64,000 nt of DNA from Eledone cirrhosa (Eukaryota). The position numbers and the translations under genes were made by a program. Below, piece after piece: positions 4,155-33,058 of the stretch; the stretch's first letter is position 1, and each line of letters starts with the position of its first letter. The notes under the pieces were generated by a model. That model worked only from the letters and a program-made list of their open reading frames with translations, made no database searches and was not told the origin of the DNA. The stretch covers positions 24,552,001-24,616,000 of the forward strand of contig OZ024747.1 of the NCBI GenBank assembly GCA_964016885.1. Direction: 5' to 3'.

Positions 4155-4452
4155 GTGAGTGGTAGTTGCAGAGGGAAATTCAACAGTTAAAGTACGAGTG
4201 AAATAGATTCTTTCCAATCCAAAGAAGGTTCCATAGAAGTAGTTGATAGATTCTGTTTCCTAAGTGACCGAATTAGTACAATGAGGTTGCTGTGAAAGCA
4301 TTGTAACCAGAATAAGAACAGTGTGGTAAAATTTCAGGAAGCTACTACCTCTGCTGATGACAAAGCAATTCTCTCTCTGAGAGAAGGTTAGATTATATGA
4401 TGCCATGTACAAAATTTGATGTTATATAGTAGTGAAACATAGGCATTGAATA
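4155..4452 (+). pseudogene. Decayed RTE reverse transcriptase fragment
   Basis: GSIEVVDRFCFL, RIRTVW, FRKLLPLL, RLYDA and SSET motifs with stops, homologous to ORF 40778-41290. Confidence 0.7.
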
Positions 4453-4524: not shown

Positions 4525-4579
4525 ACTGCTATATATATTTCAGTGACAGCCATCTTTGGCTGTGACCTCTTCAGGCAGT
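4525..4579 (-). ncRNA. Type I hammerhead ribozyme motif (canonical core) in a Penelope pseudo-LTR-like repeat
   Basis: Minus strand: actgc CTGAAGA ggtcacagcca-aaga-tggctgtcact GAAA tatata TA gcagt; stem I actgc/gcagt, palindromic stem III. Confidence 0.8.
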
Positions 4580-4781: not shown

Positions 4782-5157
4782 TCATCGATTAATGTCTATA
4801 TTCCACGCTAACATGGGTTAGAGGGGTTTGGCCCATTTAGAGGCTGGGTGCTTTTGCCGTGTCTTTTACATATGTCCACTTTACAGTATATATATATATA
4901 TATAAATCAAGATGGATTCAGCTTGAAAATGGTTAGACCATTACTCAACAGAGTTCTTGATACTTGGGGTAGTAGAGTTTAGTTATGTTATAAAAAGTTG
5001 GGAACCTAACAGCTGAGCTCAGCCATTGGGGTCCTGACTCTTTACTGAGGAAGGTACCGATATCAGCACTCTATGCTATAGCAGAGTGTATATATTGAGA
5101 ACAAAATAAGGTTTCTTTTATTGATCAGGTTCAGTTATGAACATTTCACATATGGGT

Positions 5158-5567
5158 GTATCCAGCCAGAATTCTCTCACCTCTTTCTGATCAAACCAGC
5201 CATAACTGGCTGCTCATATTTATGTTAAGGTATTGTTCTCAATATAAATAATATCAAAATCTCATAGATTCGATATAATTGTTTCTACTTTTGGCACAAG
5301 GCCAGCAATTACCCAGTGCATTACTGGTACTTTATTTTATCAACCCCATAAGGATGAAAGGCAAAGTTAACCTCGGCGGGATTTGAACTCAGAATGGCAA
5401 GGGCCGTAACTCTATACGTCAAAGGATGGCGTCTGACCCTCTACCGATACTGCCAATCCACCGCCTCTCATAGATTCGATATAATATGAGATAATTATGT
5501 AAGATAAAGTGTTTACGGTGAAAATACAATAGTAAATACGGAGTAATGTAAATGCTAAAGGGTCAAT
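5158..5567 (-). mobile_element. piggyBac-like MITE copy interrupted by a SINE
   Basis: Reverse-complement homology to 52905-53121; terminal aaatgctaaagggtcaa. Confidence 0.6.
5280..5465 (-). mobile_element. Full-length family A SINE with 20-bp TSD
   Basis: TSD tctcatagattcgatataat at 5260-5279 and 5466-5485. Confidence 0.9.
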
Positions 5568-5861
5568 GCTATAGACACGATACTAGTCCTAACTACTCAC
5601 CAGACTTGTTAATCAAGCAAAACCAAAATCCTGTTAAACATTCGTAACTGAAGGTGATCAATAAAAATCTCAATGTGAAACCTTGTTTTGTTCTTTAAGG
5701 CCATTTAAATATAACTTATTCATTATGTGACTAATGTTTTTTTATTTAACACCTTACATTGTATTTGTTTCTATATGTATATATATATGTATTAAAGCCT
5801 GGTTAGTTTCTCAACTGATATATTTCTATATATCATTTAAAATGTTATATATATATATAAT

Positions 5862-5921
5862 TTTCATTCTGACGAGCGAAGTTAGACTCGTCTGTCTTCG
5901 TGAAACCTTTGGTAAATGAGA
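5862..5921 (+). ncRNA. Type I hammerhead ribozyme (fully canonical)
   Basis: tttcatt CTGACGA gcgaag...cttcgt GAAA cc-ttt-gg TA aatgaga; stems I, II and III all pair; predicted GUA cleavage after 5914. Confidence 0.85.
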
Positions 5922-6006
5922 TAATTATCTTATGTTGTTTATTACATAACTAAAAAGCTCTGTAGTTTACATAGAACACTCTCTTTTCCTTTACGTTTGG
6001 AAACAC

Positions 6007-6070
<64 letters not shown>

Positions 6071-6152
6071 TATCCAAGATGTATAACAGATTTGACTCTA
6101 CAAGTATTGAATTACCTTGTACTTTAAATAAATGTTTGTTTTTGTTTACAGG

Positions 6153-6462
6153 TGAAGGCATGTGGCTTAGTGGTTAGAGTGTTGAGCTCGCAATCATGAG
6201 ATTATGAGTTTGATTCTCAGATTGGGTCATGCGTTGTGACCTTGAGCAAGTCACTTTATTTCACATTGCTTTCAGTTCATTCAGCTGGACAAAATGAGTT
6301 GCAACATCACTGGTAAGATGGGGGGTCTGTGGTTTGCCTTGCGAGACAAACTACAAACCCTCCATCTCAATTCTACTTTTGAAAAGCATAAGAACTATGA
6401 AAGCGGTAAAGGAAATAAATATTCTTAAAAAGACTCCAGTTACATTTTCAATTTCTTTTCCT

Positions 6463-20129: not shown

Positions 20130-21292
20130 TCATCATCATCATCATCTTCGTTTAACGTCCATTTTCCACGCTAGCATGGGTTAGACAGGAGTTGTCCCAC
20201 TTGAGGCAAGGTTGGCCGGGTGACCATGTCTCACTCATATAGGACTATCTGGCGGGTTTTCTACGGCTGGATGCCCTTCCTAACACCAACCACATTTACA
20301 GTATGGAACTGGGAACTTTTTACCGTGTTACCTACACGGCCACATTACAGCGTGGAGTGTGTTTTCTCTCGTGACACCTACACGATCTCGATCTCGATCT
20401 CGATCTCAATCTCATTTATTTGGACTGGATGTTGTGTACCAACTTTATAGAAAGAGGGTGGTGTTGGTGGGAGTGGGAGGGTAGGGGTAGTGGATTGGGG
20501 TGTATATTTGGTTAAGAGGTACCTGTAGGTTTCGCTTTGTACATAGGCAAGGCGGGTCTTCTGTATTACTGCGTAGCGCAAAAGGTCTCGGTCCAGTGAC
20601 ATTGTCTTAGAGAGGTGCAAGTGTGCGAGGTTGGAATTTATCAAATCGTCCCAGGTTTTCTGGGTCTACCTACTCTGTAACTACCATCAACTTTGATCGC
20701 CCTGCACTTTTTTATACAGCTGTCGTCTTTCATGCGCATCACATGGCCATACCAACGTAGTTTTCTCTCAAGTAAACAGCATATGATCCCTCTTATTCCT
20801 AATTTCTCACTTAGTTCATTTATGCTTTGCCGTTCACGTATATTACTATTACACATCCAACGGAGCATTCATGCTTCGTTCCTTTCCAGTCTGCACAGGT
20901 CCTCTTCACGTAATACCCATGTCTCACTGCCATGTAGCATTGCTGTTTGTATACAGGCATCATACAATCTGCCTTTCATTTTTAGAGAGAAACCTTTGGT
21001 GGCCAACAGCGGTATAAGCTCTCTCAACTTTTTCCATCCCGTTCTGACTCTGGCTCTGTACTTTCAGAGCACCCTCCACACTGCTGATTTCGTCACCCAG
21101 GTAACGGAAAGTGTCTACTATTTCTATAGAACCATCTGGGCAATAGAAGGGGCTAGTATCCTGTGGACACTTGCTACCTATTGCACCTGAGCATCGGCCA
21201 CATATAAAGTCTACGTTCTTAGATAGTTTACCTGTGATCCCACTACATCTTTTATGTACCCATACTTTGCATTTGGGACATAAAATTGAATT
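20130..21292 (-). mobile_element. 5'-truncated RTE-clade LINE (RT C-terminus, partial PHD-like finger, 3' UTR, (GAT)n tail)
   Basis: ILCPKCKVWVHKRC...CGRC, IEIVDTFRYLG, MLRWMC, RKLRWYGHVMRM, GRPRK; frameshifted. Confidence 0.9.
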
Positions 21293-21302
21293 TATATATA
21301 TA

Positions 21303-22179
21303 CAGGGTGCGGACGACATCTGTTCGCAATTTTCAACTGCTAATTTTATGCAAATTTTTTTAACTTCTGTTGTCACTCTTGTCTTCATAAAAACAGTGAC
21401 TATATTTCCCTTATTTATTTTCAGAATAATTGATTATGAATAATTTTGAACCTCCAAATTTGTGGAAGAGACACAGAGTTCTTCTTGGAATCCGCGCCTG
21501 GAGGACAAATAAAACCAGAAGATCAACTCCCAGAACAACAGGTGGCTCGCTGTCTCATCCAAAGACATGCCCAGAGTCATGCAGACAAAATTTGCAGCGA
21601 CAACATTGGATTAGGTGTCGTCAGTAGTCAAGGTGACATCATGCCACCTCACTTCTTCTCTAAGGGCCTCAAGCTGAACACCGATGGCTACATCCGCGTT
21701 CTGAGCGAGGTAGTAAAACCCTAGATCAACCAGGTAGCTGCAGGTAGGCCGTACATGTGGCAGCAAGACTCAGCACCCTACCATACCAGCCGAAAGACCC
21801 AAGCCTGGCTGTCAGAGTACTTCGTCGGACATCTGGCCTCCCAGCTTGCCTGACTGCAACCCCCTCGACTTTTTTGTGTGGGGCGCAGTGGAACGAGACA
21901 CCAACAGATCTAGCTGTAATACAAAAGACGATCTGAAGGCCAGGATCACAAGTGCCTTTAGGGATTTAAGTAGGGGGACAATGACGAAGGCCTGTAGCCG
22001 GTTCCGAGGCTGCCTTGAGGCCGTCATCAAAGCCAATGGCGGGTTTATCGAGTGAGATCGGAAGAACAAGTCATGAAGACAAACTGACCCAAGTTTGATA
22101 AATGTATCTTAAAAAATAAAACTACTGTGATATTTTTTCCTAGACAGTAATCTTGCGAAAAGATATCGTTCGCACCCTG
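21303..22179 (+). mobile_element. Internally deleted Tc1/mariner (maT-like) DNA transposon
   Basis: TIRs cagggtgcggacgacatctgttcgcaa / ttgcgaaaagatatcgttcgcaccctg with TA flanks; transposase remnants MPPHFF, WQQDSAPYH, PDCNPLDFFVWG, ANGGFIE with a stop and deletions. Confidence 0.9.
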
Positions 22180-25569: not shown

Positions 25570-25905
25570 GAAGGCACATGGCTTAGTGGTTAGAGCATTG
25601 GCCTTGCAATCGAAAGGTTGTGAGTTCAATTCTCAGACTGGGTGATGTGTTGTTTCCTTGAGCAAGACACTTTATTTTACATTGCTTCAGTTTACTCAGC
25701 TGTAGAAATGAGATGATAGGGACTGAGGTCCTTATCATTCCACTGCAAAGTGGTTGTGAAGGTGCCACGGCAAAAAAGCACCCAGCACTCACTGTAAATG
25801 AGGTTGGTGTTAGGAAGGGCATCCAGCTGTAGAAATCAAGCCAGTATCAGTTCCCGTCCCACCCTTGCAAGCAAGGAAAAGCGGACGTAAAATGATGATG
25901 ATGAT
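25570..25905 (+). mobile_element. Full-length family B SINE (tRNA head, central core, RTE-derived tail)
   Basis: tggcttagtggttagagc, gagttcaattc, ccttgagcaagacactt, tail cccgtcccacccttgcaagcaaggaaaagcggacgtaaaat(gat)n. Confidence 0.9.
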
Positions 25906-32165: not shown

Positions 32166-33058
32166 GAGCTAACAATCCTGATGTTGACAAAACTTTAACC
32201 CATCAGTGGTTGGCATCCTCTGGACTGAAATCGGAGACTGAAGGACTGATTATATAGGCACAAGATCAGTGTCTGCCAACAAAAAATTACCAAGCCAACA
32301 TAATAAAAAAATGGGTGCAGCCCATTATGCCGTGTATGCAAAAAACAACCAGAGACCATTGACCATATAATTTCAATGTGCAGTCCTATAGCTCCAACCG
32401 AATACCTAAACAGGCATGACAGAGCTGCACAATACATACATTGGATAATGTGTAAGCATTTTGACCTGCCCCATCAAAAGAATTGGTGGGAGCATCAACC
32501 ACCTCCCATACTTAAAAAAGATCACATCTCAATCTTGTGGAACTTTAGCATCCAAACAGACCGAAAAATAGATGCAAATAGACCTGATATAATATTGAAG
32601 GACTTTCAAAGGAGGGTATGCCTGCTAATTGATATGTCTGTTCCAATAGACAAGAATGTATCTATAAAAACATTTGAAAAATTGAGCAAGTATAAGGACC
32701 TGGAGATAGAAATTGGAAAAATGTGGAAATTGAGAACTAAAACAATACCAGTGGTTGTAGGCGCTCTGGGAATGATACCTAAGGGGTCTAACGACTACTT
32801 ATCGCAAATCCCAGGAAACCCGCGTATAGGAGAAATACAAAAGATAGTACTAATAGGAACTGCCCATATACTAAGGAAGATTCTGTCAATATAAGTACAT
32901 CACAAGTCTAAAAACCTAAAGATGCATGTGTGAGTATGTATGTTCTTTCTTGAACATGGCGGACCTTGTTGTCTCTTGAGGTCACTGGTTGTGACTTGGT
33001 GATAACTCGTATGAACATAAAGCAAGATAAATGCAAATGATAATAATAATAATAATAA
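32165..33058 (+). mobile_element. 5'-truncated R4/Dong-type LINE (restriction-like endonuclease) in a (TAA)n tract
   Basis: ETEGLII*AQDQ, CCHC knuckle CRVC..ETIDHIISMC, RHD, RPDII..IDMSVP..EKLSKY (PD-(D/E)xK); one stop and one frameshift; (AAT)n on both sides. Confidence 0.9.

Follow-up and report, generated by a model that had tools for sequence, protein, structure and literature searches.

A hammerhead motif in Eledone cirrhosa, very probably a relic terminal repeat of a Penelope-like element

The hammerhead motif at positions 5862–5921 lies within a dispersed repeat. We conclude with high confidence that the surrounding segment (5859–6009 of the window, the whole 64-kb stretch of DNA analysed) is the 5′-truncated 3′ end of a Penelope-like element (PLE) with an open reading frame (ORF) bearing Hydra motifs, and that the hammerhead is the terminal-repeat ribozyme of this element, likely a passive relic for which weak or no single-copy cleavage is predicted. 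The analysis directly established membership in a repeat family with two fixed 3′ ends, the presence of inverted pairs and of (TA)n flanks, and a same-strand link to an ORF with reverse transcriptase (RT) and GIY-YIG domains; the published accounts on which this reading also draws are parts of PMC8557442 (section 11, figure 2 legend), PMC11167929 and PMC4209133. The locus itself is an ordinary relic of a new family in a known PLE clade and matters little, being one among thousands.

Anatomy of the hammerhead motif

Read from the sequence, 5862–5921 (+) is a type I hammerhead motif with every core base present and a GUA site. The two strands of stem I (5862–5868 and 5915–5921) pair over 7 bp, including one G-U, as the original prediction had it. 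The core segments it named are also in place: CUGACGA (C3–A9) at 5869–5875 and GAAA (G12–A15.1) at 5902–5905 conform to the type I pattern of CUGANGA, GAAA and a U-H site, the last at 5913–5914. Following standard hammerhead numbering, we take 5913–5914 to be U16.1 and A17 of the GUA triplet, with the predicted cut after 5914 (5914/5915). Stem I is open-ended, and the three helices comprise 7, 6+4 and 2 bp, of which helix III (5906–5912, quasi-palindromic CC-UUU-GG with a 3-nt loop) is marginal. Mononucleotide shuffling of the window in blocks, repeated 200 times and scanned on both strands, yielded no hammerhead even at relaxed stem lengths of 5/4/2, which rules out a chance motif.

Stem II (5876–5901) consists of 6 bp (5876–5881/5896–5901), a U-U mismatch and 4 bp closed by a 4-nt loop. 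Its proximal helix was described correctly at the outset; the distal pairing of agac with gtct, as written, closes a 2-nt loop, and the feasible helix is 5883–5886/5891–5894. The stem starts with a G10.1-U11.1 wobble and is 13 nt shorter than the common form of the family. A G10.1-C11.1 pair is usual in hammerheads, though not obligatory. With the wobble at this position, and with no match of the window to any Rfam hammerhead family at the gathering score or even at E≤10, the motif is not the “fully canonical” hammerhead it was taken for. The helix III called real is, as a lone hairpin, predicted to be unfolded (+1.0 kcal/mol), compared with −7.1 kcal/mol for its self-dimer between two copies. 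A weak, self-complementary helix III is the usual form in animal type I hammerheads, according to the part of PMC4209133 that describes them.

Repeat family and parent element

The motif had also been described as standing alone in featureless DNA, a view overturned by its genomic distribution. An exact match to a 22-mer from the core is found 1,305 times in the 3.0-Gb genome (0 for a control pattern), giving a family of at least 1,305 copies; of 1,525 candidates in a genome search with the repeat, 40 were scored and gave 55 matches. The window copy, 151 bases long, has (TA)n and other repeats as its flanks, and repeat alignment marks 5859–6009 (+) as the putative 5′-truncated terminal repeat and tail of a Hydra-clade-like Penelope-like retrotransposon. 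A (TA)7 tract (5846–5859) forms its left flank and an (AT)20 tract (6010–6050) its right flank, both likely part of the insertion target; most copies of the family are likewise inserted in (TA)n.

Family copies are variably truncated at the 5′ end and stop at one of two fixed 3′ points, which lie 38 nt and ~95–100 nt beyond the cut site and border on (TA)n. Among 29 copies read from the alignment by eye, 14 have the short end, 14 the long end (two false alignments having been discounted) and 1 is interrupted; the set derives from 30 copies fetched via an upstream probe, with L048 excluded as an inversion junction. In window coordinates, element sequence to the short end spans 5922–5952 (+), and the optional tail of ~60 bp to the long end, which the window copy carries, spans 5953–6009 (+). 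Head-to-head (divergent) pairs within 300 bp numbered 9 among the first 100 listed copies, in which there were no plain head-to-tail neighbours and no arrays of 170–400 bp head-to-tail units. Neither the window nor the preceding 10 kb contains a sister copy for dimer cleavage.

The two fixed 3′ ends and the head-to-head inverted pairs are PLE signatures. PLE insertions are described, in the part of PMC8557442 devoted to them, as 5′-truncated, with an inverted 5′ copy and an optional tail; the family displays all of these, the tail extending one end in 14 of the 29 copies, as well as partial tandems forming pseudo-LTRs. Two sequencing runs from one sample showed very deep cover by sister copies, and no piece of them spans the window locus. 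One family copy (L020:960–1140) adjoins an apparent immunoglobulin-domain exon, so labelled by eye, of an opposite-strand host gene, and in another (L256) the whole hammerhead between both stem I arms is deleted.

The parent ORF was reached by a stepwise upstream walk through the low-complexity 3′ UTR, ~2–3 kb in length, by which family copies extend into an ORF of their own. At L166, the RT end, the endonuclease, the UTR landmarks and the hammerhead unit are colinear on one strand; L229 independently shows the same order, its 5′ end being occupied by an inverted piece that carries the hammerhead. These two loci confirm the suspected adjacency to a Penelope RT, while the copy-number check proposed with it gave the figure above. 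An inverted ORF piece lies beside the hammerhead unit at L047, L038 and L171, and L167 contains RT core motifs, a linker of the CxCx5C type, a cysteine-free GIY-YIG core and CxxC. The linked ORFs at L166 and L229 are frameshifted, broken and interrupted by other insertions, and no intact ORF of the window copy's exact subfamily was found; a single RT and GIY-YIG ORF on the hammerhead strand is intact in a sister copy, L182. This 710-aa ORF contains RWK, DKT, RDD, CxCx5C and CxH, and a homologous hammerhead (L182:5327–5386) lies 2 kb downstream of it.

Motifs of this type define the Hydra clade in the relevant part of PMC8557442. RWK and DKT, at residues 37 and 114 of L182, are both also present in L181, whose DNA is 92% identical to the linked copy L167. 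CxxC occurs in L167, L047 and L182; CxH occurs in L182 only and is decayed in L047 and L167. Insertion into (TA)n is a further Hydra-clade trait that the family shows, whereas the size typical of the clade (<3 kb, not a defining character) is exceeded by the sister tandem period of 4,143 bp. Pfam returned no RT or GIY-YIG match for the ORFs, and a PDB search likewise nothing significant. Placement is based on the motifs, by which the parent element most likely falls within the Hydra clade.

Other ORFs were considered as partners and rejected. The first candidate, a PLE ORF beside L018/L021, has a relative in L024/L045/L124, and each carries its own different hammerhead and 3′ ends; these ORFs are merely nested in the same (TA)n tracts as family copies. 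A repeat upstream in L030, once considered part of the element, belongs to another family. The PLE at L021:2088–3953 and at G000:C28, ~42.00–42.07 Mb, is different and very young, with an ORF of up to 1,218 aa, its own minimal hammerhead, 99 scored copies that are 99–100% identical and a tandem array with a 4,146-bp period; it is nested in (TA)n within a copy of the window hammerhead's family. As a separate observation, many near-full-length copies (L210, L212, L213, L217, L219, L222, L224, L225, L227 and L228) start inside the tail region, not at the cut site, and a short stretch of inverted tail often precedes their start.

A rival reading makes the family a non-autonomous non-LTR retrozyme or a SINE-like repeat with a hammerhead, mobilized in trans via a small circular RNA; in its favour are the high copy number, the type I hammerhead whose helix III is short, and the prevalence of short, non-coding copies. 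Metazoan non-LTR retrozymes, in the part of Cervera and de la Pena 2020 (PMC7229834) that characterizes them, likewise have type I hammerheads with a helix III of 1–2 bp in thousands of copies, and stem II of the axolotl Amex2 retrozyme is mismatched at its base. They are non-coding head-to-tail repeats of 170–400 nt (PMC7229834 and, in the part consulted, bioRxiv 10.64898/2026.07.22.740005), whereas the window family is dispersed and variably truncated, shows no such arrays, reaches its own ORF through the UTR and ends 38 and 95–100 nt past the cut site, not at it. The ORF link largely refutes a retrozyme origin, for which we see only the slightest chance.

Sister families and known relatives

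The sister family (L182, L184–L208) shares ~74% identity with the window family in the hammerhead unit and 68–83% in most protein segments. Across 131 bases, the 41 best of its listed copies show 100% identity, and its tandem units lie 4.1–4.3 kb apart; the family is likely to have been active recently or to be active still. In tandem units (L184, L187, L210, L223), the tail continues into a leader of ~120–130 nt and then the ORF start. Two earlier search patterns for copies reading past the tail reached no ORF start, and a third, built from the known leader, did so. Of 25 sister loci, 2 have a tail that leads on into the leader and start codon, and a run-on of this kind also involves the window family's own tail in L210.

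Stem II shows two-sided changes at 5 of 11 pairs across sister families. For a set of 8 hand-picked related rows representing ~3 lineages, the count of 10 covariation cells was reached in none of 500 shuffles, whereas the count of 5 pairs was reached in 71 of 500 and is not above the shuffles. The stem of helix III is the same in all 8 rows; its loop and N7 vary. The covariation of stem II between sister families suggests that master elements kept the fold, which is probably under selection there. In inserted copies, non-CpG mismatches amount to 12/308 in the core and 27/858 in the downstream flank, and there is therefore no extra conservation of the core after insertion.

Hammerheads in PLE terminal repeats have been published before, including that of an octopus Hydra family (PMC8557442, in the part on PLE structure). 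The Hydra-clade PLEs described there, among them Hydra-1_Obim from Octopus bimaculoides, resemble the present family in having a C-terminal GIY-YIG domain, RWK, DKT and CxCX5C, in lacking CCHH, in targeting (TA)n and in carrying a hammerhead close to the 3′ end. The Hydra-1_Obim hammerhead, as given in a portion of the supplement, likewise has a CC-N3-GG helix III and begins stem II with A-U-type pairing, and the start and RT motifs of the two ORFs are alike when compared by eye. Unlike Hydra-1_Obim, the present family has a different hammerhead sequence (GUA site, long stem II) and a long low-complexity 3′ UTR, and the unit measures ~4.1 kb in the sister family versus 2.5 kb in Hydra-1_Obim.

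Two further systems offer a comparison, each as far as the cited part of its paper goes. The PAc/Poseidon PLE of Anolis carolinensis (Frangieh et al. 2024, PMC11167929) likewise has two RT start sites downstream of the hammerhead, producing a short and a long end, with uncut RNA as the main template and AT-rich targets. Its hammerhead overlaps the ORF start and lacks helix III, whereas that of the window family has a 2-bp helix III; the PLE tail is given as 30–40 bp, compared with ~60 bp here and an ORF start ~120–130 nt beyond the tail. Minimal PLE hammerheads (Cervera and de la Pena 2014, PMC4209133) are likewise type I with a long helix II and a short self-complementary helix III, occurring mostly as single truncated copies or as opposite-strand pairs 100–700 bp apart. 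Their extra base between 9 and 10.1 and G10.1-C11.1 pair are both absent from the window motif, and its stem I is longer.

The main text of an octopus repeat annotation (PMC13282606), in the portion consulted, mentions PLEs and contains no ribozyme or Hydra family. The novelty of the family holds against main texts; the supplements of PMC13282606 and of the bioRxiv report cited above could list it. In the literature covered, a scope that leaves out most subscription journals, we found no cleavage test of a Hydra-clade hammerhead.

Predicted folding and cleavage

The three-stem shape whose formation had been proposed as a check is attainable for the window copy at a predicted −10.0 kcal/mol, but the predicted ground state (−12.3 kcal/mol) pairs the core. 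For the family-majority form, the predicted minimum-energy fold is the three-stem shape. The predicted competent fraction of the window 60-mer is 0.3–0.5%, compared with 1–2% for four sister forms, and is 7e-6 when 211 nt of context are included. Because folding models omit tertiary contacts, only the ranking of these predicted folds is meaningful, and by that ranking the window copy is predicted to fold less well than the family's common form.

Relative to the family majority, the window copy has 7 substitutions over 149 aligned bases (4.7%) and deletions of 13 and 5 nt, and in this respect it is like the other copies (family median 7.1%). The larger deletion, of 13 nt, takes away the distal hairpin of stem II. 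The same deletion is found in seven other copies, on different backgrounds and in three cases within inverted pairs with a longer partner, and for these reasons it likely arises repeatedly by slippage. Of 30 copies taken for a tally of the core, 3 could not be parsed; the core is equally intact in 20 of the remaining 27, and the window copy is therefore not special. The 10.1-11.1 pair in the same 27 copies is C-U in 14, A-U in 8, G-U in 2, U-U in 2 and G-C in 1.

These results bear on the proposal that the window copy is a ribozyme active as a monomer in a plus-strand host transcript, cutting after 5914, as would be the case for a PLE relic put to host use. The intact core, the extendable stem I of 7 bp and the 10 bp of stem II speak for it, as does the G-U at 10.1-11.1, which pairs better than the C-U of 14 of the 27 sister copies; in the part of PMC3088659 that bears on this position, even U-U permits cleavage. 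Against it stand the core-pairing ground state and the small competent fraction, both predicted, and a divergence like that of any other copy. Furthermore, no host-looking exon was seen among 32 ORFs of ≥110 aa in 1–34000, a survey that short exons would escape. We consider such a host role improbable. The motif is the best-formed of the three in the window; the picture of a lone, canonical ribozyme cutting host pre-mRNA or lncRNA is unsupported, given a PLE terminal-repeat hammerhead with a poorer predicted fold and many equally intact sisters.

Retrozyme hammerheads with a 2-bp helix III cleave as monomers at ~0.8/min (coral) and ~0.1/min (mussel), and that of axolotl Amex2 reaches 22% monomer cleavage in 1 h, according to the part of PMC7229834 reporting these assays. 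Since such weak retrozyme hammerheads cleave as monomers and even U-U can stand at 10.1-11.1, a trimmed window construct could quite possibly show some cleavage in vitro. A broader proposal would make the variant with a CC-N3-GG helix III, a free 10.1-11.1 pair and a long covarying stem II an efficient monomer cleaver, so that the window copy and thousands of sisters would cut read-through host transcripts. Although this is a long shot in our estimate, still-active Hydra PLEs would, if it were true, seed host RNA cleavage sites genome-wide.

The copies themselves show whether cleavage shapes them. The exact 23-nt stretch from the cut site occurs at 4,403 places, covering the window family and sister families (the window copy, one base different, is excluded), and 4,175 of these retain the G 3 nt upstream of the cut. 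Of the remaining 228, 30 were inspected: the upstream hammerhead persists in 19, inversion junctions near the site account for 7 rows (5 loci), a single local duplication for 3 rows and a deletion for 1. A control position 6 nt downstream showed loss of the upstream part in 7 of 30 inspected (of 255), so that 5′ ends show no pile-up at the cut site (truncations in 7/30 at the cut versus 7/30 at the control). Every copy spanning the cut site came from RNA that was uncut there. The absence of a pile-up agrees with the finding for the Anolis PLE that unprocessed RNA is the main template; its cleavage requires the element protein (PMC11167929, in the part concerning templates).

From published work on other PLEs, the element protein would nick the (TA)n target, reverse transcription would start at the long-end start site, 95–100 nt past the cut site, and the RT would fall off after ~150–170 nt. 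Reverse transcription from beyond the cut site would imply that the ribozyme in the template is uncut. In master elements, the ribozyme likely processes a tandem precursor RNA, either as a dimer paired via the quasi-palindromic helix III or assisted by the element protein. A series of sister Hydra-like families coexists in the genome, and one of them is very young, with 100% identical copies, an intact ORF and tandem units. The hammerheads of the series have preserved stem II through compensatory changes even though the copies derive from uncut RNA, which makes the series a convenient system for studying the role of PLE hammerheads.

The rest of the window contains further repeats. Two more type I hammerhead-like motifs with TA-rich helix III regions lie at 4574 (−) and 40063 (+); they are weakly related to each other and, as originally stated, unrelated in sequence to the hammerhead at 5862–5921. 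Both match other loci, some as inverted pairs, and are likely ends of other PLE families. Just upstream of the hammerhead copy, 5154–5566 contains pieces of two other dispersed repeats. Open frames at 20960–21433 (−) and 32307–32894 (+) presumably resemble LINE fragments. A tRNA-derived SINE-like repeat occurs at 6147–6301 and again at 25577–25640, where it scores as a tRNA at the Rfam threshold.
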